Shown here piece by piece: positions 1-36,070 of a stretch of DNA of 43,283 nucleotides (the first letter of the stretch is position 1; the number at the start of each line of letters is the position of its first letter). The notes beneath the pieces were generated by a model. That model made no database searches, was not told the DNA's origin, and saw nothing but the letters and a program-made list of their open reading frames with translations. The DNA comes from Chiloscyllium plagiosum (Eukaryota). The translations under genes were made by a program, and so were the position numbers. Location: the NCBI RefSeq assembly GCF_004010195.1, contig NC_057718.1:39949910-39993192 (forward strand), in the 5' to 3' direction.

Positions 1-246
1 CCTACTGTGAATCCTCTTGCAAGGATGCCTGCCTTGAAGAAGTTTTCCTCCTCTCTCTACAAGAATCTCAGGGAGTCTCTCTCTCATTGCAACTCCCAGT
101 CCCCACCCCCACCCTCCTCTAGCTTATCTCTCCATGCTTCAGGCTCTCTGCCTTTATTCCTGATGAAGGGCTTTTGCCCGAAACGTCGATTTTGCCTGTC
201 TTCGGATGCTGCCTGAATTGCTGTGCTCTTCCAGCACCACTGATCC
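1..246 (+). mobile_element. Penelope-like element terminal repeat (pLTR) fragment, family A, running off the window start
   Basis: Bases ~99-246 are a near-identical reverse complement of part of 43058-43283 and share the cctgatgaagggcttttgcccgaaacgtcgat...ccagcaccac unit with six other copies. Bases 1-98 resemble the sequence that follows the pLTR in shark Penelope elements (from recall). Confidence 0.7.
156..191 (+). ncRNA. Minimal type I hammerhead ribozyme motif (family A), core intact
   Basis: CTGATGA 160-166, extra A 167, stem II GGGC(168-171)/GCCC(176-179) with TTTT loop, GAAA 180-183, palindromic ACGT 183-186, predicted cleavage after GTC (187). Stem I is weak (attc/gatt). Confidence 0.6.
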
Positions 247-702
247 TATATCAGAGGGTTGATGAAGGTGAAACACATTGGATATAAATGAAGCAAATGG
301 GGACAGCTACATAACAAGAGAAAGAAACCTGAACACGTGAGCCTTTGTAAGATATATATTCATCTGAATAAAAAAGGTATAAATTTTTTAAAATGCAAGC
401 TGGTACATATTGTTGCTATACTATTTACATTACATAGGAAACAGTAAAGCAGCACAAACTGTTCCTCAATTCGAGTCAGAGTCATTAAGTCAGAGTCATA
501 AAATTATACAGCACGGAAACAGACCCTTCCGTCCAACTCGTCCATGCCAACCAGGTTTTCTAAACTGTACTAGCCCCATTTGCCTGCATTTGGTCCATAT
601 CCCTCTAAACCTTTCCTATCCATGAACCTGTCCAAATGTCTTTTGAATGTTGTAACTGTACTCACCTCTACCACTGCCTCTGGCAGGTTGTTCCATATTT
701 GT

Positions 703-827
703 GGTAAAAACAATGACTGCAGATGCTGGAAACCAGTTTCTGGATTAGTGGTGCTGGAAGAGCACAGCAGTTCAGGCAGCATCCAAGGAGATTCGAAATC
801 GACGTTTTGGGCAAAAGCCCTTCATCA
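703..827 (-). mobile_element. Short Penelope pLTR insertion, family A1; hammerhead GAAA mutated to AAAA
   Basis: ggtaaaaacaatgactgcagatgctgg...gggcaaaagcccttcatca matches 43058-43182. It interrupts the host CR1, with no TSD and a few host bases lost. Confidence 0.8.
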
Positions 828-925
828 CTGTGCGAGAAAGTTGTCCTTCAGGTCCCTATTACACCTTACCCCATGCCTTCTACTTTTGAGATCCCCAACC
901 CGAGAGAAAAGATCTTGGTATTCAC

Positions 926-1166
926 AGTTAAAAATCACACAACAACCAGGTTATAGTCCAACAGGTCTATTTGGAAGCACTAGCTTTCGGAGTGCTGCTC
1001 CTTCATCAGGTGGTTCATCATTTTCTGCATATTTAAATATATACAACCACCTAATGAAGGAGCAGTGCTCCGAAAGTTAGTGCTTCCAAATAAACCTGTT
1101 GGACTATAACCTGGTGTTGTGTGATTTTTAACTTTGTACACCCCAGTCCAACACCAGCATCTCCAA
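926..1166. mobile_element. Inverted pair of Penelope pLTR fragments, family B, inserted in CR1 with ~14 bp TSD
   Basis: Arm 926-1015 is the reverse complement of 1045-1133. The same sequence forms the end of the RT/GIY-YIG element at 21401. Flanks are atcttggtattcac (912-925) and atcttggctattcac (1167-1181). Confidence 0.85.
975..1015 (-). ncRNA. Minimal type I hammerhead ribozyme motif (family B), core intact
   Basis: Minus strand reads aaccac-CTGATGA-a-ggag-cagca-ctcc-GAA-AGCT-A-gtgctt. Stem I is cac/gtg (extendable aa/tt past one C.C mismatch), stem II ggag/ctcc, helix III the palindrome AGCT, with predicted cleavage after CTA. Confidence 0.7.
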
Positions 1167-4100
1167 ATCTTGGCTATTCACCACATCTATGTCTGTCATG
1201 ATTTTACAAACCTCTGTAAGATCACCCCTCAGTCTCCTGTGTCTCAGGGAGAAAGGTCCCAGCCTATCCAGCCTCTCATTGTAATTCAAACCCTCCAATC
1301 TCCTTAACATCCTTGTAAATCTTTTTCGCACCCTTTCCAGTTTAATACGTCCTTCCGATAGCAGGGTGAGCAGAATTATATCAATACCATAAATGTAGCT
1401 TCACCAATGTCTTGTACAGCCGTAACATGACATATCAACTCCTATACTCAATTCCTGCTTTCCAATTTTTAAAATGGGAAGGCAATATTTTCTAGATGTC
1501 TTGGTTCTTATTTATACTGCTCACTGTGGAATTGGGTATATGGATAGAAAGGACTCAGGGTTCATCCCAAATCTGTGGAAATGTAAACTGGGGCAAAATG
1601 ACAACTGGCTTTCACATTACTCAGAGTCAGAACAAAATGGTCAGAACCCTTATGCTAGTGGATCTCCAGTTGCTCCTGCAGGAAGGTGTGCCTAACCATT
1701 TTTCATAATACCTTTTATGGGCAACAATTTGCACATACAATCCTACTTTAAGTAAAACCATATGGATAATGTGCCAGAGGGTAGTTGCCATATATAAAAA
1801 AAGCTGGCTAAGCATGTCTCTGTATTTTCAGATACTGGTAATGTGGGAAGCACAAGTGCGGGCAGGGGAGGTGGTTATTGATGGGATCAATGCAGGGTGT
1901 GGAATAAATAAAGGCGAGACCAAACAGAATGTGAAATTATTACAATTGTTCAAAATGCACGTATGCGAATTGTTCAATATTAACTTTTGGACAGAAAACT
2001 CATTTGCTATTCACCTCTAAAGGAAGACAGACAGAAACAGAATTGAAGACACATTTCATTTCAGCATTGAAATGTAAATGACGCACTGTTGAATAAGAGG
2101 TAATAGGACACACCAGATGGCGAGTTGAGAACAAATTTGAACACAATGCTTAAAAATGCAGATGATTCTCTGAACTAATTTATAGGGAGTAGCTGTTTTG
2201 CTGAGACACTGAAAGTCCTTGGTCGTTCAGTGTTTCTCTTAAAAGCCAACTGCTGAATAAAAAATCAAAAAGCAGGGGAACTCATAACTTTAAAAATGAT
2301 TGCTGTTGAAGCGATTGACAGTCAGGAAGAGGTATTCCAATGAATGAATGGGAATAAAACTCATTCTGGTAAACTGCAGTTAGATATAAGATTTGAATTA
2401 AGGTGAAACAACTTGATGAGGATTAATAAAGTCATCTGCCATCTAAGAAGTGAAATAGGTAACTGGCCTCTTTAAAACATTAAGGTGCATCGCAGTTGTA
2501 GAAGTGTATTCTGTAAATCATCTATGTGATTTGTTTTCTTAGAAACTATGCTTTTCAACTCTGATAAAATTACTTACATTTTGAAGTAGATGTTTTCTGA
2601 ATGTATAAATATTTTAAGATTCATTTCAACTTGATGTGAGCAAGTATACCTCAGTAAGCTGAAGAGGACATAAATTCAATTAAAAACATTGGTCATCTTG
2701 AATGATATACTTAGTTTTTTGTCTCTTATTTTAAACTATTGTAGAATTCTTTGTCTGCAAAATTATTGTTGGTGAGATGAGGAATACTTCACACACTTGT
2801 ATGGAGTTCCTTTGGCTGTCATTTAAATGCAGGCATGACCCCATTTTGTATAAACGGGGTAACATCAGTTTTAAAATACCAAATAAAGGAATGAGAAATG
2901 AATGTGTTCAACACAACTCTGTTAACATTACCGATGGGTTGTCCTCACAAGCATCAACAACATGCTGGATTCTTCCTGTTGTCTTGGTTGGATTGGGGGT
3001 GGGTCAGAAAGGCTATAAAATGCCACAGGAGGACAGGAAGTGAAATGCTCAATACTTTTCTTCTGCCAAAGTATTTCACTGATGGAGAGGAAGTTCCCTG
3101 CTTTCTCCATCCCCAATGCTAACAGGGTCACTGAAGTGTTGGATTAAGGTTCTCCTCCAACCTTTGCTGGTATTTCATCAGTCACAGGTGACCCTTATGC
3201 CAGGTGGCAAGAAAGGCTAGTAAACCGGGCAGCATACCTTTAGCTCAGGACTGCAACTCTCTCCATCAGAGGCACTGTAGCCTAAAGAGGGACCCCCACA
3301 TATCAATGTCTATCCCATCGAAATCATGGTCTTGCCCTCTCCAACCCCTCTGCCCTTTCCTTGGGCCCTGCCTGACAGGTCTGATGACTACTGACCCTAC
3401 TTCATTGTGAAAGTGGTGTTCATTGCTGCGTCGTCTGAGTTGGGTTCAGTCGACACTGCTCCTAGTGACACTGCTAGGACTGAAGAGCTGCCAGCCCTCA
3501 ACTGTATGAAATACCCCTCCCATTCACCAAAATCATCACATATTAAACCCAATGAAACCAGGACACTCTCCTGCCAATGGATTTGAAGGTGACAGGGTCA
3601 CAAAATCCATCTGCAGCCTACTCACGTGTCTGAAGCATTACCAGAGGGTACAAACACTCACCACAACCTCTTGGGATTATTGATGGAAACTTAAGGGCCT
3701 CATTCCACCTCTGCAGGTAACGGAGACAGGAACACCAGGCTATGCACGAAGCCTGGCAGCTTTAGTTGGGCAGGTTGGTGTTGGGCAAAGATATTGGGAC
3801 CTGCTTTGAAGACACCTTGGTCCCATTGGAGCCGTGACCTCCTCCCCATTGCCAGAAATGACACCCCTCACCCACCCTGACACCCTTAACACTTAACTGG
3901 TACCTTCCCACCTCACACTTTATCCACCTGATAACCCATCCACCTGGCATCCTACTTAGCTGGCACCCTACTCACTTGGCATGGTGATACCCTGACCTCA
4001 GTTACCTCACACACTTAGCCTTTCACAGGAGCTATTAAAGAGGCTTTCTGTGTTTCTAGGCAATTAAGTCACATGGCCTACATTGACCCAAGTATTTTGC

Positions 4101-5809
4101 ACTACGAGGGCACAGTGGATTGAAAATATGCTCGACATTTCCATTCAGGCTGAGAGTGGAACGCCCTGCCAGACATATGGGGCCCTTTCTTAAAATAGAA
4201 AAGTAGGAGCCGAGTGTCAATCTGTTTATGATTGCCACTCCTTGGAAAAACCAATCGAATATTTTAACTCACATTCGAGGGAGTCAACTGATGGCCATCT
4301 GTCTATGGAGCCTGCAAGATTTAGTGAAAATCTTTTGGTAGCAAGGTACAACAATCCAATTAATTTATGAAGATTCCTTCCCATGCTGTTTGGTATAACA
4401 CTAGTAGATAATTGAATTTGCCTCAGCAAAGGAGAGTAAGGATAATTGTAGAGTCATAGAATCATGGAGATATACAGCATGGAAACCCGTCCATGCCGAC
4501 GAGATATTCCAACCCAATCTAGTCCCTCCTGCCAGCACCTGACCCATACCCCTCCAAACCCTTCCTATTTATATTCCCATCCAAATGCCTTTTAAATGTT
4601 GCAGTTGTACCAGCCTCAACCACATCCTCTGGCAGCTTATTCCATGCTCTGTGTGAAAAAGTTGCACCTTAAGTCTCTCTTATATCTTTCCCCTCTCACC
4701 CTAAACCTATGCCCTCTAGTTCTGGATGTCCCAACCCCAAGGAAAAGACTTTGTCTATTTATCCTATCCATGCCCCTCATGATTTTGTAAACCTCTATAA
4801 GGTCATCCCCCTCAACCTCCAATGCTCTAGGGATAACAGCCCCAGCCTGTTCAGCCTCTCCCTATAGCTCAAATCCTCCAACCCTGGCAGCATCCTTGTA
4901 AATCTTTTCTGAACCATTTCAAGTTTCACAACATCTTTCTGATAGGAAGGAGACCAGAATTGCATGCAATATTCCAACAGTGGCCTAACCAATGTCCTGT
5001 ACAGCCACAACATGACCTTACAACTCCTGTACTCAGTACTCTGACCAATAAAAGAAAGCATACCAAACACCTTCTTCACTATCCTAGCTACCTGCAACTC
5101 CACTTTCAAGGATCTATGAACCTGCACTCCAAGGTCTCTTTGTTCAGCAACACTCCCTAGGACTTGACCATCAAGTGTATAAGTCCTGTTAAGAGTTGCT
5201 TTCCCAAAATACAGCACCTTGCATTTATCTGAATTAAATTCCATCTGCCACTTCTCAGCCCATTGGCCCATCTGATCAAGATTCTGTTGTAATCTGAGGT
5301 AACCCTCTTCGCTGTCCACTACACCTCCAATTTTTGTGTCATCTGCAAACTGACTAACTGTACCTCTTATGCTTGCATCCAAATCATTTATGTAAATGAC
5401 AAAAAATAGTGGACCCAGAACCGATCCTTGTGGCACTCCACTGGTCACAGGCCTCCAGTCTGAAAACAACCCTCCACCACCACCCTCAGTCTTCTACCTT
5501 TGAGCCAGTTCTGTATCCAAATGGCTAGTTCTCCCTGTATTCCATGAGATCTAACCTTGCTAATCAGTCTCCCATGGGGAACCTTGTTGAACGCTTTACT
5601 GAAGTCCAAATAGATCACATCTACTGCTCTGCCCTCATCAAATCTCTTTGTTACTTCTTCAAAAAACTCAATCAAGTTTGTGAGACATAATTTCCCAACG
5701 TACAAAGCCATGTTGACTATCCCTAATCAGTTCTTGCCTTTCCAAATACATGTACATCCTGTCCCTCAGGATTCCCTCCAACAACTTGCCCACCACCGAA
5801 ATTAGGCTC

Positions 5810-5891
5810 ACCGGTCTATAGTTCCCTGGCTTGTCCTTACCACCCTTTTTACCGGTCTATAGTTCCCTGGCTTGTCCTTACCACCCTTTTT
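5810..5891. repeat. Perfect 41-bp tandem duplication inside CR1 ORF2
   Basis: accggtctatagttccctggcttgtccttaccacccttttt occurs at 5810-5850 and 5851-5891. It is single-copy in the sister element near 35083-35123. Confidence 0.95.
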
Positions 5892-6420
5892 AAACAGTGG
5901 TACCACGTTAGGCAACCTCCAGTCTTCCGGCACCTCACCTGTGACTATCGATGATGCAAATATCTCACAAGAGGCCCAGCACTCACTTCTCTAGATTCCC
6001 ACAGAGTTCTTGGGTACACCTGATCAAGTACTGGGGATTTATCCACCTGTATGTGTTTCAAGACATCCAGCACTTCCTCCTCTGTAATCTGGACATTTTG
6101 CAAGATGTCGCCATCTATTTCCCCACAGCCTATATCCTCCATATCCTTTTCCACAGTAAACACTGATGCAAAATACTTGTTTAGTATCTCCCCCATTTTC
6201 AGCGCTCCACACAAAGGCCACCTTGCTGATCTTTGAGGGGCCCTATTCTCTCCCGAGATACCCTTTTATCCTTAATGTATTTGTAAAAACTCTTGGATTC
6301 TCCTTAATTCTATTTGCCAAAGCTATCTCATGTCCCATTTTTTCCCTCCTAAATATACTCCTACTTCCTTTATACTGTTCGAAGGATTCCCTCAATCTAT
6401 CCTGTTTATACCTTACATAT

Positions 6421-6699
6421 TTTGATTTGATTCCTACAGTGTGGAAACAGGCCCTTTGGCCCAAACCGACACTCTGAAGAGTAGCCCACCCAGACCCATT
6501 TCCCTCTGACTAATTGACTTAACACTATGGCCAATTCACCTGACCTGCGCATCTTTGGACTGTGGGAGGAAACCAGAGTACCCACGCAGACAAAGGGAGA
6601 ATGTGCAAACTCCACACAGACAGTCACCGAGGTTGGAATTGAACCGGGGACCCTGGTGCTATGAGGCAGCAGTGCTAACCATTGAGCCACTGTGCCGCC
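6421..6699 (-). mobile_element. HE1/V-SINE-type tRNA-derived SINE inserted in CR1 ORF2
   Basis: Minus strand ggcggcacagtggctcaatggttagc (box A)...ggttcaattcc (box B), followed by the V-SINE-like core and a CR1-like 3' tail ending in aatca repeats. Similar to 32864-33178. Confidence 0.9.
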
Positions 6700-7699
6700 A
6701 ATGCTGCCTTCTTTTTCTAAACCAAATCCTCAATTTCTTTAGTCATCCAGCATTCCCTATACCTACCAGCCTTTCCTTTCACCCGAACAGGAATATACAT
6801 TCTCTGGATTTTTGTATCTCATTTCTGAAGGCTTCCCATTTTCCAGCCGTCCCTTTGCCTGCGAACATCTCTCCCCAATCAGCTTTTGAACGTTCTTGTC
6901 TAATACTGTCAAAATTAGCCTTCTCCAATTTAGGACTTCAACTTTTAGATCTGGTCTATCCTTTTCCATCACTATTTTAAATCTAATGGAATTATGGTCA
7001 CTGGCCTCAAAGTGCTCCCCCACTGACAACTCAGTCACCTGCTCTGCCTTATTTCCCAAGAGTAGGTCAAGTTTCTCTAGTAGGTACATCCACATACTGA
7101 ATCAGAAAATTGTCTTGTATACACTTAACAAATTCCTCTCCATCTAAACCCTTAACACTATGGCAGTCCCAGTCGATGTTTAAAATCCCCTACCATAACC
7201 ACCCTATTATTCTTACAGATAGCTGAGATCTCCTTACAAGTTTGTTTCTTAGTTTCCCTCTGACCATTAAGGGGTCTATAATACAATCCCAATAAGGCTA
7301 TCGTCCCTTTCGTATTTCTCAGTTCCACCCAAATATCTTTCCTGGATGTATTTCCAGGAATATCCTCCCTCAGTACAGCTGTAGTGCTATCCCTTATCAA
7401 AAATGCCACTCCCCCTCCTCTCTTGGCCCCCATTCTATCCTTCCTGCAGCATTTGTATTCTGGAACATTAAGCTGCCAGTCCTATCCATTCCTAAGCCAT
7501 GTTTCTGTAATTGTTCTGATATCCCAGTCCCATGTTCCTAACCATGCCCTGAGCTCATCTGCCTTCCCTTTAGGCCCCTTGTATTGAAATAAATGCAGTT
7601 TAATTTATTAGTCCTACCTTGTCCCTGCCTGCCCTGAATGTTTGACTCACTTCTGTTCTCAACTGTACCAGTCTCAGATTGATCTCTTTCCTCACTATC

Positions 7700-8704
7700 T
7701 CCCTGTGTCCCACCCCCCCACCTTCCTAGTTTAAATCCTCCTGAGCAGCTCAAAGCAAATTTCCCTGCCAGTATATTAGTCCCCTTCCAATTTAGGTGCA
7801 ATCTATCCTTCTTGTACAGGTCACTCCTCCCCCAGAAGAGATTCCAATGATCCAAAAATGTGAATCCTTCTCCCATACACCAGCTCCTCAGCCATGCATT
7901 CATCTGCTCTATCCTCCTGTTCCTGCCCTCACTAGCTCGTTGCACCGGGAATAATCCAGATATTACTACTCTCGAGGACCTCCTTTTTAAATTTCTGCCT
8001 AACTTTTTGCAATCTCCCTTCAGAATCTCAACCTTTCCCCTTCCTATATCATTGGTTCCAATGTGGACAATGACCTCTTGCTGGCCCTTCTCCCCCTTGA
8101 GAACATTCTGCACCCTCTCTGAGACATCCTTGATCCTGCCACCAGGGAAGCAACACATCATTCTGATTTTTTGCTGCTGGCCACAGAAACATCTGTCTGT
8201 ACCTCGGACTCGAGAATCCCCTAACACAATTGATCTCTTGGAACCCTACATAGCCCTCGTTGCATTAGAGCCAGTCTCAATACCAGAAACTTAGCTGTTT
8301 GTGCTATGTTCCTCTGAGAATCCATCACCCCCTACATTTTCCAAAACAGCATACTTGTTTGAAATGAGTATAGCCACAGAACACACATGCATTAGGTGCC
8401 TACCTCTCTTACCTTTCCTGGAGTTAACCCATCTATGTGACTGTATCTGAGACTTTCCCCCCTTCCTATAACTGTCATCCATCACATAGTGTTGCTGTTG
8501 CAAATTCCTCATTGATTCTAACTGTCTCTCCAACTGATCTATTCGATCTGATAAGATTTGCAACCAATAACATTTACTGCAGATATAATCCGCAGTAACC
8601 CTTAAACTCTCTTTAAACTCCCACATCTGACAAGAAGCAGATATCACTCTACTAAAGGCCATTTTTGCTTCTTCACAATCTACAGACCCAGAAAATAACC
8701 CCAT
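7700..8704 (-). pseudogene. CR1 ORF1: N-terminal zinc-finger/leucine-zipper region plus SGNH/GDSL esterase domain
   Basis: SASCQMW...YICSKCYWLQILSDRIDQLERQL, then LGDS, HIGTND and DRLHL blocks. The ORFs 8291-8704 and 7538-8227 are in frame and separated by one stop codon. Confidence 0.85.
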
Positions 8705-10789: not shown

Positions 10790-11430
10790 ACCACAATATG
10801 AGTTTCCGTCTCCATCACCTCTCTATCCCCAAAACTACATTCTTCTACTGTCACACCATTGCCTGGTTCTACCCCGTATCTGCTGCTGAAATGACTTACC
10901 TGTGGACTCAACTATTCCTATGCTTTCCTAGTCAGTCTCATTCTTTTCCCTCCATGAAATGAAATTTGTCCAAACCTCCACATCTTAATCAACATGAATG
11001 CCCTATTTACCCAGCACTGACTCACATGGACACTCTATCCACCAGAGTCTCAAACATCACATTTTCATCTTGTTGTCAACTACAAGACCATAACCTCGGG
11101 AAAAGTTTTCCTAAATCAATCATTCTTGCTCTCCAACACTCCCTTGCTTTCTCTGCAGCCCATTTAGGAGAAAGTGAGGACTGCAGATGCTGGGGATCAG
11201 AGTCGAGAGTGTGGTGCTGGAAAAGCACAGCAGGTCAGGCAGCATCCGAGGAGCAGGAGAATCGACGTTTCGGACATAACCCATTCATCAGCCCATTTAG
11301 GATACTATTTCTTTTAATAACCCTCCATAAACCCTTCTTTGGCATGATGCAAACTTTTACTGGTATTATTCTCCTGTGCAACACCTGGAAGTCTTTATAG
11401 AATGTATTAAAATGCATGTTGTTGTTGTCA
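10790..11430 (+). mobile_element. Highly decayed L2-type LINE 3' fragment, interrupted by a pLTR insertion
   Basis: Degenerate similarity to L2 ORF2 C-terminal DNA (tctgctgctgaaa, actattcctatgct) and an L2-like tail ctcctgtg...aaatgcatgttgttgttg. Recognised by eye. Confidence 0.5.
11170..11288 (-). mobile_element. Short Penelope pLTR insertion, family A2, with 14-bp TSD
   Basis: gaaagtgaggactgcagatgctgg...atcgacgtttcgg...ttcatcag, flanked by cagcccatttagga at 11156-11169 and 11289-11302. The hammerhead core is present but stem II is degraded. Confidence 0.85.
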
Positions 11431-11834: not shown

Positions 11835-12980
11835 GTGAATATGGGGTCAAGAGGTCCTGGCAAAACTCAAATTCAAAAGGCATCAGAGGGAAACACTCTT
11901 TATAGGCCCCTATTAGCACAGAGGAAGATGGATATGGTAGTTAAGATCAGCTATCTTAGTTCCAAGATATCACTGCAGGAGTTCCTCAGGTTGGGTCATA
12001 GTCCGTCATTTTCAGTTGCTTCATCAATGACTTCCCTGCCAAAAAAAGGCAGAAGTCAGGATATTAATGATTGCAGTGTTCAGTACTAACCATAACCCCT
12101 CAGATATTTAAGCCGTCTGTGTTCATTTCCAGCTTGACCATGACAACATTAGGACTAGTGTTGTTAAGTGATGTTTGCTGTCATAAGTACCAGCAATGAC
12201 CATTTCCATTAATAGAGCATCTAACCATTCAACAATATTATAATTACTAAATCCTCTACCATCAACATCCTGGGTATTACCATTGTTCACAAATGCAAAT
12301 AGACCAGCCACATAAACTCTATGGATACAAAAAAAGGATAGAGACTGGGAAATCTAAATTGAGTAAATCCCTTCATTCCCCAAAGTCTGTCCATCATCTG
12401 AAAGGCACAAATGAGGAGTGTGATAGAATACTGCCCGCTTGCCTGGATACATACAGGAGCTAGGGCTTGAAAAGCTTGCGGTTTCAAATAAACCTGTTGG
12501 ACTATAACCCAGTTTCGTGTGATTTTTGACTTTGTCAACATTCAAGAAATTCAATAGAATTCAAGGCAGGGCAGCTTGCTTGGTTGACAGCATCGGTCAC
12601 TTTAAGTATTCCCTGTCTTCACAGCAATATGTATAAGATTGACTGCAATAACTCACAAAAGCACTTTCAAAAGCAGATTTCAAATCCTCGCCCTAGAAAG
12701 ATGAGGGCAGCAGACACATGGGAAGACCACCACTTGGAACTGTCTGTCAAGTCACTAACCATCTGGACTTTGAATTCTACTGTCATTTGTAAACTGTCAT
12801 TGGGTCAAGATCTTGGAACTCTCTCCCTAACAGCTGCCTGGATGTACCTACACCACATGAATGACAGACATTCAAAAAGGCAGCTCACTAACACCTTTGC
12901 AAAAGAAATCAGTACAGGGTAATGTAAATAAATGCCGTACTTGCCTAAGATTTTTACATGTTTTGATAGACATAAAGAAA
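11835..12980 (+). mobile_element. Decayed CR1-group (Crack/L2-like) LINE RT-to-3' fragment, same family as 9400-10520
   Basis: AGVPQ (11975) and CFINDF (12017). It shares gcaatgaccat, atcaacatcctggg, ccccaaagtctgtccatcatct and aaggcagctc with the 9860-10500 segment. Confidence 0.7.
12455..12536 (+). mobile_element. Short Penelope pLTR fragment, family B variant, degraded
   Basis: aaataaacctgttggactataac...gtgtgatttttgactttgt matches 1088-1137 and interrupts the host LINE. Confidence 0.75.
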
Positions 12981-13077: not shown

Positions 13078-15477
13078 GGTTTTTGCATCAGTATTTACTG
13101 TGGAGAAGGATATAGAAGCTGGACAACTTGGGGAAATAATGAGTGATATCTTGGAAAGTATCCATATTGCAGAAGAAGAAGTGGTCACTGTCTTACAAAA
13201 CCTAAAGGTGGATAAATCCCCGACACCTGATCATGTGTATCCCAGAATTTGTTGGAAGCTGGAGAGGAAATTGCTGGGCCCCTTGCTGAGATATTTGTAT
13301 CATCAATAGCTACAGGTGAGGTGCTGGAAGCCTGGAGGTTGGCTAATGTGTTGCCAATATTTAAGAAAGGTTGTAAGAAAAACTAAGGAACTATAGACTG
13401 GAAAGCCTGATGTCGGTGGTGGGTAAATTGTTGGAGGGGATTCCAAGGGATAGGATTTACATGCATTTGAAAAGGAAGGGCTGATTAAGCAAAGTCAACA
13501 TATCTTTGTGCATGGGAAATCATATCTCACTAACTTGACTGAATTGTTTGAAGAAGTGACAAAGAAGATTGTTAAAGGCACAGTGGTAGACACTGTCTAT
13601 GTGGACTTCAGTAACGTATTTGTCAAGATTCCACAGAGTAGACTGATTAGCAGGTTAGATCATATGGAATTCGGGGGAGCTAGTCAATTGAATACAAAAT
13701 TGGCTTGAAGGTGGGAGACAGAAAGTGACAGCGCACAGATGTTTTTTGGTCTGGAAGCTTGTGCTGCAAGAATCAGTGCTCAGACTGTACCTTTTCATCA
13801 TTGATATAAATGATTTGGATGTGAATAGGAGAAATGGTTAGTAAGTTTGCAGATGACACCAAAATTGATGGTATATTGGACAGTGAAGATGGTTATCTCA
13901 GAGTACAATGGGATATAGGTCAGATGGGCCAATGGGCCGAGGAATGGCAGGTGGAGTTTAATTTGGATAAATGTGAGGCATTGCATTTTGGTGAGGCAAA
14001 TCAGGACAGGACTTCTACACTTAATGATAGGGCTCTGAGGATGTGTTGCTAAACAAAGGGACCTAAGGGTGCAGGTACGTGGTTCCCTGAACGTGGAGTC
14101 GTGGGTGGCTGTGGTGAAGAAGACGTTTGGTACACTTGCCTTTATTGGCGAGTGCATTGAGAATGGAAGTAGGGATGTCATGTTGCAGCTGTACAGGACA
14201 TGGGTTAGACCACTTTTAGAATACTGCACACAAGTTTGGTCTCCCTGTCATAGGAAAGATAGAAAAGAATAGAAAGCAACTTATTGTCCCGTGTATTTTT
14301 ACAAAAAAAGTGAAACGTTTTATACATTGTCATACCATTGTGCCTAAATTAATGACAGAAGTCGTAAATAAGGAGAAAAAAATGTAAAAGTTTGTTATAA
14401 TTCAATTAACATCTCCTGGGTTTAGGTTAAGCTGGAAAACTGGGCTGAAAGTGCCACACAGGGCTAGGGTGAGACAGGACCTGCAGGCTGGGACTCAACC
14501 TCCATGCTTGGTCATTGGAAAAGCTGCCTCTGAAGTAAAGCAGAGACCTTCATGCCAAGATGAGACCTCCATGCCAGAATGAGGCCTTCACCAGGGCTGC
14601 TCCGTTGGAATGCCTGGAAGCTGCTGAGGACGACCTCCACGACGGATGAGACCTCCGTGCCAGGACAAGAATGCCACTCCAGGTGGACAGCTTTCCCTCC
14701 TGGACAAGGCCACCACACTGGGAGACCGCTGCACCAGGAGACCGTCCCACCAGGCACCAGGCTTATACCACCATTCTGGGGCATTGGAAGCCACCTCATC
14801 ACTGGGCCTGGGTTGGGAGAAGACGTTTTCCATGAAAGTCATTAAAAGGTAACATAATAAATAGAAACATTAAAATAATGCATAGAAAGAAGAAAAAAGT
14901 AAAGCAGATGGAATAGATGAGCTCCTGGGCTGAAGAGTCCACACGTTGCGATGCTACTCCGCCACCACCTTGATTAAAAAAAAGTTGTAAAACTTGAATG
15001 AGTTCAGAAAAGATTTACAAACCTGTTGCTGGGATTGGAGGGGTTAGAGCTATAGGGAAAAGCTAAATAGGTTGAGACTTTCTTCTCTGAGGTGTTGGAG
15101 CCTGAGGGGTGACCTTATAAAGGTTTATAAATTCCTGAGGAGCATGGATAGAGAAAATAGACAAGGTATTTTCCCCAGGGTAGGGGAATCCAAAACTAGA
15201 CAGCATAGGTTTAGGGTGAGAGAGGAAATATTTAAAAGGGACCTAAGGGGCAACTTTTTCATGCAGAGGATGATGCGTGTATGGAATGAGCTGCCAGAGG
15301 AAGTGGTGGAGGCCGGTATAAGTACAACATTTAAAAGGCATTTGGATGGGTATATGAATAGGAAGGGATAATGACCAAATGCTGACAAATGTGACTTGAT
15401 CAGCTTAGGATAACTGGTTGGCATGGACAAAGTGGACTGATGGTTTGTTTTCATGCTGTATATCTCTACGACTCTTT
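13078..15477 (+). mobile_element. 5'-truncated CR1/HER1-type LINE split by a ~720-bp insertion
   Basis: Motifs KVDKSPTPDHVYPR, VDTVYVDFS, SKFADDTKI, VRPLLEYC and VWNELPEEVVEAG. The host sequence aggaaagat|gttgtaaaacttga rejoins across 14261-14983. Confidence 0.9.
14261..14983 (-). mobile_element. Unclassified non-autonomous element with internal degenerate ~19-bp repeats and a tacacgggacaataa 3' tail
   Basis: It cleanly interrupts the CR1. Internal units read gagacc(t/c)(t/c)catgcca..at around 14543-14585 and 14648. The tail motif is shared with 26355-26417 and 33375-33432. Confidence 0.6.
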
Positions 15478-21118: not shown

Positions 21119-21550
21119 AAGCTGACTTTTAATGTTTTGACCCACTCACAAATGGGAGGTTGGCAACACATTGAGAAAATTGGAGGTTTGATCAGTGATT
21201 TGTCAAGGGCTTTTTAAGTCAGCTAAAGGAACAGCACCCACTTCCTGTTGTCTCAACCTTGTGGAATTGTGTTCAAATAATGTATAAAATTGGTGAGTGG
21301 TGAAAATAGCCTCTTTATTCAACAAAAGCAGTACCACAAGTTTGAGGCAACAATAGAATCCTGAAATACAGTTCTTACAATGGCCTCTTTATACACAGTT
21401 AACAATCACACAACACCAGGTTATAGTGCAACAGGTTTATTTGGAAGCACTAGCTTCATCAGGTGGTTGTGAAGCAGAATGATAAGTCACAGAATTTATA
21501 GCAACAGGATTGCAGTGTCATGGAATGCAATATTAACCAAAGTTAGCTTA

Positions 21551-22041
21551 AACTGGAGCGTGTCTAGTGGAAATTCACACAGATGATCCCTGGAATAGTA
21601 GGCCTAACATACGATGAACAGCTGAGGATTGTATTCATTAGCATTTAGAAGGTTGAGGGGAGATCTAATAGAAACTTACAAGATAATACATAGCTTAGAA
21701 AGGGTGGACGCTGTGAAGTTGTTTCCGTTAGGCAGGGAGACTAGGACCCGTGAGCACTGCCTTAGAATTAGAGGGGGTCAATTTTGAAAGGAAATGAGGA
21801 GACATTTCTTCAGCCAGAGAGTGGTGGGCCTGTGGAATTCACTGCCACGAAGCGCAGTGGAAGCTGGGACATTAAATGTCTTCAAGGCAGAGATTGATAA
21901 ATTCTTGATCTTGCAAGGAAATAAGGGCTATGGGGACAGTGTGGATAAATAGAGTTGAAATGCCCATCAGCCATGATTAAAGGGCAGAGTGGACTCAAAG
22001 GGCCAAATGGCCTTACTTCCACTCCTATGTCTTATGGTCTT
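21551..22041 (+). mobile_element. CR1 3' fragment inserted into the Penelope element
   Basis: tttagaaggttgaggggagatctaatagaaacttacaag (FRRLRGDLIETYK), ttcttcagccagagagtggtgggcctgtggaattcactgcca, and tail ctcctatgtcttatggtctt. Confidence 0.9.
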
Positions 22042-22298
22042 AATTATCAAATCTTTCATCTTTTATAATAATGATATTAGTTTTGTTTCCTTCATATGTA
22101 AATCCCAAGATAGCTTTAACAATAGGTGCCATGTCATCTCAGATAATGCATTGAAGGTGTGATGTTAAAGTTTGTCTGTGTCCCAATGTTGGGTCAGACT
22201 GATTCTATTTCTAAAATACACAATCTCACATGGATTTATGTAGTTTTGAGCAAAATAAAATGTAATTCTGCAAGTACAAATTCACCCCACAATCTTAC

Positions 22299-22560
22299 AT
22301 GTGTATGCGTGCAGTGAGTGTGTGCATGTGGGTGCCTGTGTGTGTGGGAGCGTGAGTGTCTGTGAGAGAGTGTGTGTATGTGTATGTTTGTGAGTGTAGT
22401 GGGGTATAAGTCTGTGAGGGGGTGTGTGTCTGGGTGCGAGTGTGGAGTGTGTCTGTGTGAATGTATGAGAGAGAGCTTGTGTATGACAGAGGGTCCTCAT
22501 GAATGTATGGGTCTGTAGGAATGTGTGTGTGTGTGTGTGTATATGAGGGAGTGTATAGTG
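22299..22560. repeat. Degenerate (TG)n/(TGAG)n microsatellite within the Penelope 3' region
   Basis: TG-rich run with a pure (tg)9 stretch near 22523-22541. Confidence 0.9.
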
Positions 22561-22568
22561 CAGTGGGG

Positions 22569-23664
22569 TCACCTGCAGTGTGACATGAACCCAAAGTCAC
22601 AGTTGAGGCCATCCCCATGGGTACTGAACTTAGCTATCAGCCTCTGCATGGCCACTTTGCGTTGTTGCCTGTCCCGAAATTCACCTTGGTGGATGGTCAC
22701 CCAAAGGCCAAATGTCCCAGACCACTGAAGTATACTCCAAAAGGGAGGGAACACTCCTGGCTGGTGATTGTTGTCCAGTGTTCATTCATCCGTTGCCGTA
22801 GCCTCTGCTCAGTCTCGCCAATGTACCATGCCTCAGCACTTCCTTGCCTACAATTTATGAGATAGATAACATTGGCCGAGTCACATGGGTATCTGACACG
22901 TACGTGGTGGGTGGTATCCCCACGTGTAATAGTGATATTCATGTTGACACGCTGACACGTCTTGCAGCGTCTACCATGACAGAGTTGTATGGTATTGTCC
23001 TGAAAGCTGCAAACAATGATCTGTTTGAGGTTTGGTGTTTGTTTAAAGGCGAGAAGTGGAGGCGTTGGGAAAGCCTTGGCGAGGTGTTCATCTTCATCGA
23101 TAATGTGTTGCAGGCTGTGAAGAACATGGCACAGTTTCTCGGCTCCCGGGAAGTACTGAACAATGAAGGATACCTGATTGGTTACAGCTCATGTCTGTCT
23201 CCTGAAGACATCATTACGGTTTCTCGCTACAGTTTGTCGGTACTGGTAGTCAATGAGTTGAGCATCGAACCCCACTCTTATGAGTACATCCTTGAGTACT
23301 TCCAAGTATCCATCATGTTCCTCCTTATCTAAACAGATCTCGTGTGTTTGTGTAGGGCTTGTCCATCAGGATTGGCTGTTTAATATGCGTAGAGTGGTAG
23401 CTAGAGAAGTGTAGCATCATGAGGCTGTCCATGGGTTTGCGGCAGAGTGAGGTGCTGAGGTGTCTATCCTTGATGGAGATGCATGCGTCCAAGAATGAGA
23501 CAAATACTAAAGAGTAGTCCATAGTGAGTTTGATGGCGGGATGAAACTCGTTGATATCACTGTGTAATTGTTTCAGTGACTCCTTGCCGTGGGCCCAGAG
23601 GAAGAAAATATCATCAATATATCTGGTGTATAGTGTTGGTTGGAGGTCCTGTGTAAAGAAGTTC
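22569..23664 (-). pseudogene. Penelope RT/GIY-YIG ORF remnant
   Basis: The YIDD catalytic motif and VIY...YIG motif lie in different frames with stops and frameshifts. Confidence 0.9.
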
Positions 23665-24379
23665 TTATACAAAGTTCTAACATCTAATAAAAGTTCATCA
23701 TTATGAAGTTACATTGTTTTATCTATAGTACACAAAGGTTTGAGGAAACAGGAGATGGCCTAAACATTTGTTAAATGCTACCTGTTACTCCTGACAGGAT
23801 TAATTAAGAGGTCTGTCTGGTCTGCTTGTATAATTAAGAGATGTTAGTTCTTTTGTCTTTAAGTTAGTAAACGTTAGTTAAAATACTAGGTCTATATGCT
23901 TTAAGTAAGTTAGAAATTGTACCTGTATTAATAAAAGAATGAAGGATATTAAACTGATTGCTGCGGCTGGTTGTGAGATGGTTTACTATTTGCTGGCATG
24001 AGTTTCATTCATTCATGCAATTTCACATATGCACTGTTTTGTCAGTTAAGGGGATAGTGGCTCTGTTAAAAGGTATTCAATAAATACATAAACTGTTTGG
24101 TGTTTTGTAATCTATTCATGTCCAAGAGACAGTTAGTAAGGGCTGATTAATATTACACTATAATGCTTCATGGAGACTTGATGGGGATGGTATTGTTTAT
24201 AATATTGACATTTATTCAGAGGCAGCTTTCGAACTAGAAATAGGCCTGATAAGGGTTAAAGGTACGAAGAAGTAGTAGTCAGTTGAAAGGGATGTTTTCA
24301 TTTTAGTCTATACTGTATTAGTAAAATATACTACAAAACCATGATTTTATGAATGAATGAATGAAAGAAACCATGTTAT

Positions 24380-24897: not shown

Positions 24898-24943
24898 AAA
24901 ACCTGTTGGACTATAACCTAGTGTTATGTGATTTTTAACTTTG
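24898..24943 (+). mobile_element. Very short Penelope pLTR fragment, family B
   Basis: aaacctgttggactataacctagtgttatgtgatttttaactttg matches 1092-1136. Confidence 0.8.
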
Positions 24944-25038: not shown

Positions 25039-25160
25039 AAAGTGAGGACTGCAGATGCTGGAAATCAGAGTCTAGATTAGAGTGGTGCTGGAAAAGCACA
25101 GCTGTTAGGCAGCATGCAAGGAGCAGGAAAATCGACGTTTCGGGCAAAAGCCCTTCATCA
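25039..25160 (-). mobile_element. Short Penelope pLTR insertion, family A2, with 8-bp TSD
   Basis: aaagtgaggactgcagatgctgg...gggcaaaagcccttcatca, flanked by ggaaggca at 25031-25038 and 25161-25168. Confidence 0.85.
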
Positions 25161-25164
25161 GGAA
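25130..25164 (-). ncRNA. Minimal hammerhead ribozyme motif (family A), core intact
   Basis: Minus strand reads ttc-CTGATGA-a-gggc-tttt-gccc-GAA-ACGT-C-gatt, an identical core to 160-190. Confidence 0.6.
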
Positions 25165-25204
25165 GGCATTTGATAGATGAAATTTAATGCAGGAAAGTGT
25201 GAAG

Positions 25205-26416: not shown

Positions 26417-26873
26417 AGTAGGAGCAGGAGTAGGCCATCTAGCCCCTCGAGCCTGCTCTGCCATTCAATAGGTTTATTGCTGTCCTTTTCGTGGACTCAG
26501 CGCCACTTATCTGCCCATTCGCCATAATCCTTAATTCTTTATTGTTCAAAAATTCAAATATCTTTGCCTTAAAAACATTCAATGAGATAGCCTCAACTGC
26601 TTCACTGGGCAGGGAATTCCATAGATTCACAACCCTTTGAGTAGAAAAGTTCCTCCTCAACTCAGTCCTAAATTTCCTTCCCCTTTTTTGAGGCTGTGCC
26701 ACTAGTTCTAGTTGCACCCGTCAGTGGAAACAACCTTTCTGCTTCTATTTATCTATTCTCTTCATTATTTTACATGTTTCTATAAGATCTCCCTCATTCT
26801 TCTAAATTCTAGTGCTAGTCTACTCAATCTCTCTTCATAAGCCAAACCTCTCAATTCCGGAACCAACCTAGTG
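26417..26873 (-). mobile_element. CR1 3' fragment
   Basis: Minus peptide FRTELRRNFSTQRVVNLWNSLPSEAVEAISLNVFKAKI. Confidence 0.9.
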
Positions 26874-28320: not shown

Positions 28321-30142
28321 GTGTCAGGGAAGCCAGTACCCTAAACCATTTCACTCAAAGGCCAGTCTCCACAGGTAAATGTAGCCAGTGAGTATTGGTG
28401 AAGTGTTTAATAATCACAATCATACACTTGCGTTGCTTTCCAGCAGGAGTCAAATAATAATGATCAAAAATGCAATACTGAATAATTACCTTTTTTGCAC
28501 ATTAATGGCACTAGCATCAATTGAAGTGCACAGGAAGAACAACTAATTCAATTGAAGCCAAATCTTTATGGATCCAGGTTGTTTATTTAGCCTTGAGGCA
28601 ATAGGATAAATGTGATACAATAAGTTGCCATTATTATACTGGAGACAAGTGCACTGGTGGCTAACAGGTAATGGAAAATGCAAAGAAACTCTAAGGTGAA
28701 ATGATGGATGTCTTATAGAGTGTTCACTGCAGTGATTCTGCCAATGCCCACACTGCTTATAAAAAAAACCTACTGTGGGTTATGACATAATCTGAACAGC
28801 TTGTTTAAACTGATCCCTTGAAAGGAAGTTATTGAGAATCAGATTGACATTAAATGTTTTCAAATAGGCCTACATCAATTTCAAGACAATGGAGAGTTGC
28901 TTTGCCAAGAATAACAGTGGGTGTGACCTCAGAATGTGGGAAAGAAGAGAACACAAAAGGTGACTGATGCTGAATTAAATCAAAAGCATAGTTAGCTCTG
29001 TTTTAAATACTGGAATATTTGAATTAAATCAACTATTATGGGATTGATTTTCTTACAAGTAGAAACATTTCCATTAAAAGGACTGAAGTGTCCAGGTGGT
29101 GTCCAGGCATGATTGGCATTTTAAAATTTTTAAAAAATTCTTGTTTACATATTGCTTGATTTCCCACTGTGTGCTTTTACACAGTTGCAAACTCTCATAC
29201 AAATGGGAATAATATTAACATTTATCACCAGGAAAATAATGGATGAATGAATAGAATGAGACTTTGGAACAGTGCTTATAAAGTTCTTTTATAAACAGGC
29301 TGCATGAGGTCAGAATTCCTCTGCATGGGTGAGGCTGCTGAGAAAAGACTGCATATCCCTTCAAAATTTTCCACACCTCAATGATTCTGTTTTGAATAAT
29401 GAGAACAGCACACCAGATTTGGTGATTTAAATCTCTAGTTCACCTCTCTCTGGTGGGAATGTATGTGTGTGTGCATGTGTGTGTAAATTACTGTGTGAGC
29501 TAACCATACCGTGAAAGAAGAAAATGAAAAGATTCACTCAATCATGTATTGCTCAAAAAATGTTGCTAAATGCTGTACATTGTTCAACAAATGTATTTTG
29601 AAAATCAATACAGTACATTGTGCACTTTATAAAAACATTCAATATTGAGGCACTTCCTGGAATTTAAATACTATCAGAAAATAAATGCATAAACTTATCA
29701 CAATTGAAGTCTCCAAAATCCAAATTAAAATTCTATTGCATATTAAAAGCAAAGATAATTTAATTTATTACCGAGATGTGCTTCTTTTGTCTAATTAGGT
29801 AAACTAGTGTTATGTAGGCCCAGATCATATTTTGCTTTGCAATCATTGGACAGCTTTGATATTTGACGAAACACTTAGCAGCAGGAGCAGTCAATTCAAC
29901 CAATCGAGCCTCCTCTGCCTTTCAATACGATCATGGCTGATCGCATTTTGGCCTCAAATCCATTTCATGGTGGCTCTCCATAACCTTTCAACCCAATACT
30001 GATCAAAAACCTGTCTATCTCAAATTTACTCAATGTCCCAGCATTCACCACATTCTAAGGTAATGAATTCCATAGATTCACGACCCTTTGGGGGAAGTAA
30101 TTTCTCCTCATGTCTGTTTTAACTGGGTTATCAGTTATCTTA

Positions 30143-30239
30143 GGTAAAAACAATGACTGCAGATGCTGGAAACCAGATTCTGGATCAATGGTGCTGGAAG
30201 AGCACAGCAATTCAGGCAGCATCGAGGAGCTTCAGCAAA
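30143..30239 (-). mobile_element. Short Penelope pLTR insertion, family A1, with perfect 13-bp TSD
   Basis: ggtaaaaacaatgactgc...cagcaaa, flanked by atcagttatctta at 30130-30142 and 30240-30252. Confidence 0.88.
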
Positions 30240-33610: not shown

Positions 33611-36070
33611 AGAGTCATAGAGTCATAGAATAGAGTACAGCATGGAAATGGACCCTTCGGTCCAACTCGTCCATGCTGATCAGATATCCCAACCCAATCG
33701 AGTCCCAACTGCCAGCACCTGGCCCATATTCCTTCAAACCTTTCCTATTCATATACCCATCCAGAAATGTTACAATTGTACTAGCCTCCACCACTTCCTC
33801 TGGCAGCTCATTCCATACATGTACCACCGTCTGCGTGATAAAGTTGCCCCTTAGGTCTCTTTTCTATCTTTCCCCTCTCACACTAAACTTATGCTCTCTA
33901 GTTCTGGACTCCCCCACCCCAACGAAGAGACTTTGTCTATTTATCCTATCCATACCCTTCATGATTTTATAAACCTCTATAAGGTCACTCCTGACCCTCT
34001 GATGCTCCAGGGAAAACAGCCCGATCCTATTAAGCCTCTCCATATAACTCAAATCCTCCAATTCTGGCAACATCCTTGAAAATCTTTTTTGAACCCTTTC
34101 AAGTTTCATAACATCCTTCCGATAGGAAGGAGACTAGAATTGCACACAATATTGCACACAGTGGCCTAACCAATGTCCTGTACAGCTGCAACATGACCTC
34201 CCAACTCCTGTACTCTGTACTCTGACCAATGAAGAAAAGCATACCAAACACCTTCTTTACTATCTTATCTACCTGCACTCCAAGGTCTCTTTGTTCAGCA
34301 ACACTATCTAGGATCTTACCATGAAATGTTTAAGTCCTGCTAAGATTTGCTTTCCCAAAATGCAGCACCTCACATTTATATAAATTAAACTTCATCTGCC
34401 ACTCCTCAACCCATTGGCCCATCTGATCAAGATCCCATTGTAATCTGAGGTAACCTTCTTTGCTGTCCACTACACCTCCAATTTTGGTGTCATCTGCACA
34501 CTTACAAACTACACCTCTTATGCTCACATCCAAATCATTTATATAAATGACGAAAAGTAACGGACTAAGCACCGATCCTTGTTGCACTCCACTGGTCACA
34601 GGTCTCCAGTCTGAAAAATTACCCTCCAACACCCTCTCTCTGTCTTCTACCTTTGAGCCAGTTCTGTATCCAAATGGCTAGTTCTCCCTGTATTCCATGA
34701 AATCTAACCTTCCTAACCAGTCTCCCAAGGGGAACCTTGTTGAATGCCTTACTGAAGTCCATATAAATTGGGCTTTTGACCGAAACAATGATTTTCCTGC
34801 TCCTCGGATGCTGCCTGACCTGCAGTGCTTTTCCAGCACCACTCTAATCTAGACTCTGGTTTCCAGCATCTGCAGATGTCACTTTTGCCTCCATGTAAAT
34901 TACATCTACCACTCTGCCCTCATCAATCCTTTTTGTTCTCTCTTCAAAAAACTCAAGAGATATGATTTCCCATGCACAAAGCCATGTTGACTACCCCTAA
35001 TCAGTCCTTGCCTTTCCAAATACATGTACATCCTGTTCCTCAGAATTTCCTCCAACAACTTGCCCACCACAGACGTCAGGCTCACTGGTCTATAGTTCCC
35101 TGGCTTGTCTTTACCACCTTTCTTAAATACTGGCACCACATTAGCCAACTTCCAGTCTTCCAGCACCTCATCTGTGACTATCAATGATACAAATATCTCA
35201 GCAAAGGGCCCAGTAATCACTTCCCTAGCTTCCCACAGATTTCTAGGATACACCTGATCAGGTCCTGGGGATTTATCCACCTTTACCCGTTTCAAGGCAT
35301 CCAGCACTTCCTCCTCTGTAATCTGGACATTTTTCAAGATGTCACCATCTATTCCCCTACATTCTATATCTTCCATGTTCTTTTCCACAGTAAATACTGA
35401 TGCAAAATACTCTTTTAGTATCTGCCTTATCTCCTGTGGCTCCACACAAAGGCTGCCTTGCTGATCTTTGAGGGGCCCTATTCTCTCCCTAGTTATCCTT
35501 TTAACCTTAATGTATTTGTAGAAATCCTTTGGATTCTCCTTAACTCTATTTGCCAAAGCTATCTCATGTCCCCTTTTTGCCCTCTTGATTTCTCTCTTTA
35601 GTATACTCCTACTGCCTTTATACTCTTCCAAGGATTCATTCAATCTGTCTTGTCTATACCTGACATATGCTTCCTTCTTTTTCTCAACCAAACCGTCTAT
35701 TTCTTTAGTCATCCAGCATTCCCTACACCTACCACCTTTCCTTTCACCCTAACAGGAATATACTGACTCTGGTCTCTCGTTATCTAATTTCTGAAGGCTT
35801 CCATTTTCCAGCCATCCCTTTACCTGTGAACATCTGCCCCCAATCAGCTTTTGAAAGTACTTGCCTAATGCCATCAAAATTAGCCTTCCTCCAATTTAGA
35901 ACTTCAACTTTTAGATCTGGTCTATCCTTTTCCATCACTACTTAAAAACTAATAGAATTATGGTTGCGGGCCCCAAAGTCCTCCCCCACTGACATCTCAG
36001 TCATCTGCCCTGCCTTATTTCCCAAGAGTGGATCAAGTTTTGTACCTTCTCTAGCAGTTACATCCACATA
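33611..36070 (-). mobile_element. 5'-truncated CR1/HER1-type LINE, same subfamily as 4451-9233
   Basis: 268-aa ORF with KSPGPD and PGNYRPVSLTSVVGKLLE, plus SGVQQGSVLSPLLFVIYINDL, CADDTK and an (agagtcat)n tail. Colinear with 4451-7095. Confidence 0.93.
34770..34889 (+). mobile_element. Short Penelope pLTR insertion, family A2, with 12-bp TSD (1 mismatch)
   Basis: gggcttttgaccgaaac...gcatctgcag...cacttttgcc, flanked by tccatataaatt (34758-34769) and tccatgtaaatt (34890-34901). Confidence 0.85.

Follow-up and report, generated by a model that had tools for sequence, protein, structure and literature searches.

The window, i.e., the whole stretch of 43,283 nucleotides of Chiloscyllium plagiosum contig NC_057718.1 that was analyzed, is repeat-rich animal DNA and carries near its left end a motif (975..1015, minus strand) that, as judged from its sequence, is a genuine minimal type-I hammerhead of the kind known from Penelope-like elements (PLEs). 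The letters from 1015 to 975 on the minus strand are exactly those given in the original prediction. The motif belongs to copy B1 of one of two hammerhead families in the window (A and B), and its parts are:

975..1015, minus strand, minimal type-I hammerhead of B1, with intact core, helix II, AGCU palindrome and A17
1015-1010, minus strand, 5' strand of helix I
1003..1009, minus strand, core C3-A9
1002, minus strand, extra A between positions 9 and 10.1
989..1001, minus strand, helix II (4 bp in B1, 5 bp in the family majority)
988-986, minus strand, G12-A14
985-982, minus strand, AGCU palindrome of helix III
981, minus strand, A17, with the predicted cut between 981 and 980

B1 has by sequence the CUGANGA ... 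GAAA ... UH core of the minimal hammerheads (min-HHRs) of PLEs, together with their G10.1-C11.1 pair (G1001-C989) and their extra nucleotide (A1002). Its helix I is short, as in the published consensus (3 bp), and consists of 3 bp, a C-C mismatch and 2–3 bp more. It is not a canonical type-I hammerhead, which would have stable helices I and III, loop–loop contacts and an Rfam match; no Rfam hammerhead family was matched in the window at E values up to 1. An Rfam match to mir-968, at E 0.12 and with a score of 29 bits (cut-off 88), corresponds to the fold-back of B1 on the neighboring copy B2 and was rejected. A descriptor requiring the core, an NUH site, pairing of 15.2 with 16.2, and minimum lengths of 4 bp for helix II and 2 bp for helix I matched three times in the window (A1 at 160, plus strand; B1 at 1009, minus strand; A25 at 25161, minus strand) and not once in 300 dinucleotide shuffles.

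B1 is accompanied by a second copy of the same family, and the pair is organized as follows:

912..925, plus strand, left target-site duplication (TSD)
926..1015, minus strand, B1, inverted 5' arm of a PLE-end insertion
1016..1044, spacer of 29 nt, AT-rich and foreign to the family, with an internal 12-nt palindrome; family depth is near 0 from 1021
1045..1166, plus strand, B2, direct arm, with G5>A, a broken palindrome (AGUU), AAUAAA and a longer 3' tail
1167..1181, plus strand, right TSD, 14 of 15 bases shared, one indel

B1 (minus strand) and B2 (plus strand) are inverted, separated by 29 nt, and start at the same helix I base or within 2 nt of it. The insertion site lies in a LINE-like repeat, three paralogues of which in the window carry the site once. 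The flanking duplication and the single site in the three paralogues indicated that B1 and B2 form a single insertion whose 5' arm is inverted, an arrangement already described for PLEs (PMC8557442); pairs of min-HHRs on opposite strands have been described as well (PMC4209133). Among the sequencing matches from a second individual or from organism B (see below), no piece spanning the B1 junctions was found. The first 1.2 kb of the window holds three insertions bearing hammerheads, two of them within one LINE-like repeat, and family-A copies lie at 700-827 and 100-246, both less than 1 kb from B1. Long related LINE-like copies, 75–90% alike and with RT fragments, occur at 4484-8245, 13081-15452 and 33636-36040; we take them to be of CR1 type.

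The window contains five copies of family B and seven of family A, and the motif is intact in one and two of them, respectively. Other copies referred to below are:

153..194, plus strand, A1, family-A hammerhead with intact core, ACGU and a 2-bp helix I
12455..12535, plus strand, B4, family-B copy in decay that retains AGCU and AAUAAA but has lost the 5' half of its core
21390..21470, minus strand, B3, terminal repeat at the 3' end of a PLE remnant, helix II deleted, AAUAAA kept
24899..24943, plus strand, B5, 3' fragment without hammerhead
25127..25168, minus strand, A25, family-A hammerhead for comparison

TSDs searched for by script were clear for B1+B2 and for family-A copies A11, A30 and A34, and unconvincing for A1, A2, A25, B3, B4 and B5. 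The family-A copy at 30140-30236 (minus strand) has a TSD of 12–13 bp and a 5' end close to the predicted cut site, this being a single case. Two family-A stubs of about 125 bp, at 11166-11291 (minus strand) and 34770-34891 (plus strand), show clear TSDs of 14–16 and 11–12 bp and begin at C3 and at helix II, respectively. Pattern scans of metagenome, viral and genome contig collections yielded no further copies.

Conservation across the family was analyzed by comparing region 860-1044, at 80% likeness, with four sequencing runs from three species (organisms A, B and C). These were DNA contig runs of organism A (25,200 matches) and organism B (25,818 matches), about 85% of each run being covered, contigs of organism C (4,248 matches), and unassembled reads from one single-cell poly(A) library of organism A (2,685 matches, about 2% covered). 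Variant shares are depth-weighted contig counts and not copy counts. No alternative letter reached 5% in any of the four runs at C3-A9, A13, A14, A15.1, C16.2 and U16.1, with local clipping near 1015 possibly masking changes at the first core letters. The palindrome is retained without a loop, alternatives being at most 5.4% at 15.2 and none being listed at 16.2. G occupies 993 in 71–79% of the depth, which gives a helix II of 5 bp in the family majority, and the loop positions are variable. Loss of the core from the family consensus, which the original prediction had named as fatal to it, was looked for in all four runs, and the majority of the family keeps the whole core. In the contig runs, G12>A amounted to 13.7–19.7%, C11.1>U to 18.8–24.9% and the CpG change in the loop to 16.5–24.7%. 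Since the share of G12>A is similar to that of the loop CpG, the catalytic G is lost from inserted copies at a rate close to that of a neutral CpG; selection would thus act on the motif in the master elements only, the majority keeping G12.

Several variants (A17>U, A17>G, C1.4>A, a 2-nt insertion in helix I and other outer helix I letters) reached shares in RNA several times those in DNA contigs. The enrichment in RNA of subfamily variants at 977-981 and 1011-1013 indicated that the expressed copies are a non-random sample. Survival from cleavage and editing were both rejected as explanations of A17>G (5–6% in RNA versus 0.2% in DNA), since both orientations show it. At 953, A>G (plus strand) was present in 47 of 352 antisense-derived and 3 of 297 sense-derived reads, which could come from one locus or from A-to-I editing.

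Pairs of the two families were scored copy by copy; an alignment made with MAFFT from 7 of the 12 copies was off by one column after helix II and was not used. Four pairs are swapped on both sides between A and B (helix I 1.2/2.2, helix II 10.3 and 10.4, and helix III 15.2/16.2), and a U-U is additionally replaced by G-C. It had been claimed that the stems differ but still pair, and the four two-sided swaps bear this out; the claim is weaker for helix I, which has only 3 bp and a C-C mismatch in B, and just 2 bp followed by a U-U mismatch in both intact family-A copies. The exchange of ACGU for AGCU was confirmed, 15.2/16.2 changing on both sides and NUH being kept in the descriptor matches. 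To call this covariation the best evidence of function was, however, an overstatement. The contrast between A and B is one independent comparison, chosen because both families fit the pattern, and is therefore not a covariation statistic, and AGCU is already present in published PLE hammerheads: the loop-less AGCU form occurs, counted by eye, in 5 of the 56 rows of the PLE hammerhead alignment (PMC4209133 Fig. S3). The palindrome and the many divergent families per genome are among the main arguments of that paper (PMC4209133), and swapped palindromes in divergent minimal hammerhead families are an already published hallmark of PLEs. Within family B, loose ends of the matches and the 2-nt insertion reveal subfamilies with different outer helix I letters; since per-position tables carry no linkage, we claim no compensatory change there.

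The candidate parent element of family B lies further into the window:

22569..23708, minus strand, broken, 5'-truncated PLE ORF, with the C-terminal part of RT, a linker and a GIY-YIG nuclease

The ORF contains YIDD at 23621 and a CX4CxxC linker at 22981-22955, which falls within the CX2-5CxxC linker that, between RT and GIY-YIG, marks the Neptune and Nematis types (PMC8557442). Its assignment to Neptune rather than Nematis is based on host range and not on an RT tree. Its GIY-YIG nuclease was recognized by Pfam with an E value of 0.002, below the curated cut-off, and the 127-aa RT piece gave no Pfam match; the best-matching proteins belong to sharks, carpet sharks among them (73% identity, E 3e-71). 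tblastn with six of the 27 protein relatives matched the window at ORF 22569-23708 only, so no PLE parent of family A was recovered in the window. Shark gene models (NOXP20-like, GPR139-like and PPP1R12A-like) contain pieces of the PLE ORF, through exonisation or as an annotation artefact.

The original prediction had the family-B repeat ending this RT/GIY-YIG element near 21401, and had tied the motif to Penelope through it. The terminal repeat is indeed the same, and B3 lies about 1.1 kb past the ORF stop (22569), with another repeat interrupting the 3' UTR; but B3 is not an intact hammerhead, a 17-nt deletion having taken all of helix II and part of the core. The tie to Penelope was nevertheless borne out by the RNA. 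Loose ends behind 1011-1015, found in 1,321 poly(A)-library reads and falling into three classes, have a consensus like the 3' UTR of the element, and the consensus behind 1015 agrees, at 22 of 28 positions aligned by eye, with what lies upstream of B3. It is thus this upstream sequence of the family, and not an intact ribozyme at 21.4 kb, that together with B3 places family B in the terminal repeat of an element with RT and GIY-YIG. The repeat inserted into the 3' UTR is at 21550-22050 (65% like 26419-26814), and a (CA)n-like tract is at 22315-22552.

Beyond the predicted cut site, family B carries the features of a polyadenylation site:

966..971, minus strand, place of the polyadenylation signal (AAUAAA in the family), 9 nt past the cut site
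951..955, minus strand, family poly(A) site, 26–30 nt after the cut site, marked by poly(T) loose ends
926..950, minus strand, GU/U-rich stretch past the poly(A) site, probably resembling a downstream element

The A at 967 makes up 97–99% of DNA and sense-RNA depth, and the sole common change of the hexamer, at its second base, gives AUUAAA in 28–51% of the depth. AUUAAA is the usual second polyadenylation signal. AAUAAA is present in B2, B3 and B4, B1 alone having AAUAGA. Among the loose ends listed, poly(T) was found in 785 reads before 951 and in 318 before 954 (1,103 of 2,685 reads), and across 951 the depth fell six-fold in sense-derived reads (1477 to 234) and from 379 to 282 in antisense-derived ones. 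The poly(A) reads cross the cut site without a drop in depth. These results showed that family RNAs are polyadenylated 11–15 nt past the hexamer and 26–30 nt past the cut site, with the hammerhead uncut. That these ends are artefactual, produced by oligo-dT priming on genomic A-tracts by 3'-truncated copies at a few expressed loci, seems unlikely to us. The data come from a single-cell library (n=1) whose reads are untraceable to loci, with 483 more loose-end rows beyond those listed. However, the sequence beyond 951 is GU-rich rather than A-rich, which argues against internal priming; the ends follow a canonical hexamer at 11–15 nt, its sole common variant being AUUAAA; the loss of depth is confined to sense RNA; the reads contain many copy-specific variants and up to 243 start places; and a poly(T) class is absent among the loose ends listed for the three contig runs.

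No A(A/U)UAAA was found up to 61 nt after the cut in the six family-A copies checked (6/6). In the published PLE alignment, AAUAAA or AUUAAA lies within about 15 nt of the cut in 11 of 56 rows, against about 1–3 expected in a rough count by eye over related rows, which hints that this layout of hammerhead and poly(A) signal is wider than sharks. Neither a poly(A) site beside PLE hammerheads nor shark hammerheads were found in the parts of the literature covered, key earlier studies being ones that could mention either. What appears to be new is that the family poly(A) site lies some 27 nt past the predicted cut, a novelty that is not proven, the hammerhead itself being of the published kind. 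In shark genes, cryptic poly(A) sites may moreover arise in large numbers from copies of this family.

With regard to cleavage, no RNA ends piled up at 981/980 in the poly(A) library. This library would lose a 27-nt product; the missing ends thus say little about paired hammerheads and fit weak monomer activity. Intact cores were not depleted in poly(A) RNA, G12>A being 15.7% in sense reads, 11.7% in antisense reads and 18.7–19.7% in DNA contigs. Nearest-neighbor folding of B1 predicted −16.9 kcal/mol for the active dimer, compared with −18.8 for a pair of monomers and −24.1 for the lowest-energy dimer; an unfavored active dimer would fit a need for protein, yet lends no support to it. PLE min-HHRs are described as inactive as monomers and weak as dimers (PMC4209133), and dimer cleavage was reported by Lunse et al. 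(via review PMC6765202). In the anole PLE, cleavage with protein help has been shown and is abolished in core mutants (PMC11167929); Frangieh et al. found it dispensable for insertion in vitro and saw no RNA-seq ends at the cut site (PMC11167929). One of nine frog retrozyme dimers was cleaved.

Based on these data, we consider it most likely that the motif at 975-1015 represents the minimal hammerhead in the pseudo-LTR (pLTR) of a very abundant Neptune-type PLE family, kept for dimer cleavage of precursor RNA. Following the literature, the motif would be kept in active master elements for processing of the precursor. Two copies on one precursor (the 5' and 3' pLTR, or a tandem) would pair through AGCU into a double hammerhead that, probably with the help of an element protein, would cut after A17, whereas a lone copy could not close helix III and hence would not be cut efficiently. 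Since the signal and the tail are positioned after the cut site, a cut in the 3' copy would strip both. It is also possible, if doubtful, that in this Neptune family the hammerhead fills the place of an LTR-like 'R' region, between the common copy start, just upstream of helix I, and the used poly(A) site. This proposal draws on the poly(A) site, on the 5 of 12 window copies that start within 8 nt of C3 (B1, B2, A2, A11 and A25) and on the end of B2, 55–60 nt past the poly(A) site. The full-length transcript would then have exactly two hammerheads, one per end, as the partners needed by the palindrome, and a double cut would strip cap and tail and convert the message into a unit-length or circular template. 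Since insertions end 50–85 nt past the poly(A) site, reverse transcription could not begin at the polyadenylated 3' end; it might start in the 5' repeat, running off to leave short stubs headed by a hammerhead, as in B1/B2, or else on RNA that is circular or has been read through.

The strongest competing explanation, which we regard as rather unlikely, is that the fold persists because it binds protein or marks transcription starts or 3' ends, or else as a passenger, with cleavage being irrelevant to transposition. It would agree with the unaffected in vitro insertion of HHR mutants (PMC11167929), with Naiads, which thrive without canonical HHRs, and with the HHR parasitism that has been proposed (PMC8557442), with the poly(A) RNAs being uncut across the site, and with a predicted energy minimum other than the active dimer. 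Against it, most members of both families retain the catalytic letters, an NUH site and the palindrome, even with C11.1-G12 being a mutable CpG, and core mutants of the anole element lose cleavage (PMC11167929). The RNA reads offer a concrete handle on the role of PLE ribozymes, and the many genomic copies, with about 19% natural G12>A dead variants, would allow an in vivo cleavage test without cloning.

Selection for cleavage in master elements has to be kept apart from activity of B1 itself. The genomic copy could be regarded as a working ribozyme under selection, e.g., exapted in a host transcript, because it has the sole intact core among the five family-B copies of the window; this we find scarcely credible. 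Some intact cores are expected by chance, most copies keeping any single core letter, and B1 has private changes at 993 (a CpG decay that reduces helix II to 4 bp), at 967 (AAUAGA) and as an extra T near 944. It differs from its twin arm B2 by five substitutions and one indel over 90 nt, only 2 of the 2,685 RNA reads are at least 99% like it, and no RNA source was listed for 700-3000. RNA across both arms is predicted to form a single long hairpin (−169.8 kcal/mol, z −19), within which the hammerhead would be hidden. B1 is decaying without selection, its poly(A) signal lost and its hammerhead predicted to be sequestered in the fold-back, and is almost certainly inert. Nearly as improbable is that family B is a non-LTR retrozyme, i.e., a non-autonomous tandem hammerhead repeat, and not the end of an autonomous PLE. 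Short, non-coding copies do predominate, and retrozymes, which are described as deriving from PLE pLTRs, are present in one chondrichthyan genome. However, among the 11 tandem-repeat rows of the window there is no head-to-tail array with hammerhead units, B1 and B2 are inverted, the motif is minimal rather than canonical, and the same repeat terminates the RT/GIY-YIG element.

Among known systems, the pLTR hammerhead of family B is closest to the PLE min-HHRs of Cervera and de la Peña (2014; PMC4209133). They share the CUGANGA core, the extra base after position 9, G10.1-C11.1, the short helix I, the absence of loop III and the palindromic 15.2-16.2, as well as solo dispersal, opposite-strand pairs and several divergent families per genome; no published sequence trait of the min-HHRs is missing. 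The row of the turtle Chrysemys in that study has, like family B, AGCU and an AAUAAA soon after the cut site; family B differs from these min-HHRs in having a C-C mismatch in place of the fourth pair of helix I. Word searches of that source returned no shark in its main text or supplement and no mention of a polyadenylation signal. A Neptune-like element of the shrimp Marsupenaeus (PMC4209133 Fig. S3) has the A17 and the helix I 3' strand of family B with a fully paired 5' strand, maybe by chance.

The element itself resembles the Neptune and Nematis EN+ PLEs (Craig et al., 2021; PMC8557442) in its RT, CX2-5CxxC linker and C-terminal GIY-YIG, and in an HHR-bearing pLTR, 5' truncation, inverted 5' copy and optional tail; unlike them, the window element is a broken 3' part only. 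PAc, a Poseidon element of the green anole (Frangieh et al., 2024; PMC11167929), likewise has a pLTR hammerhead, no RNA-seq ends at the cut and insertions that end downstream of the hammerhead, but it belongs to another clade and its ORF begins in helix II; a word search of that article found no discussion of a poly(A) site for PAc. The order of stop codon, cut site and poly(A) signal is the same in the mammalian Clec2 3' UTR hammerhead, in which a cut would remove the tail (PMC6765202). The Clec2 ribozyme, however, is discontinuous, has been domesticated by the host and is active as a monomer, whereas family B has the minimal dimer-type motif of a mobile element. Finally, animal non-LTR retrozymes (PMC7229834; bioRxiv 10.64898/2026.07.22.740005) share the type-I hammerhead and are also short, non-coding repeats related to PLE pLTRs, but they form tandem arrays with mostly canonical hammerheads, in contrast to the dispersed minimal motifs with TSDs described here.
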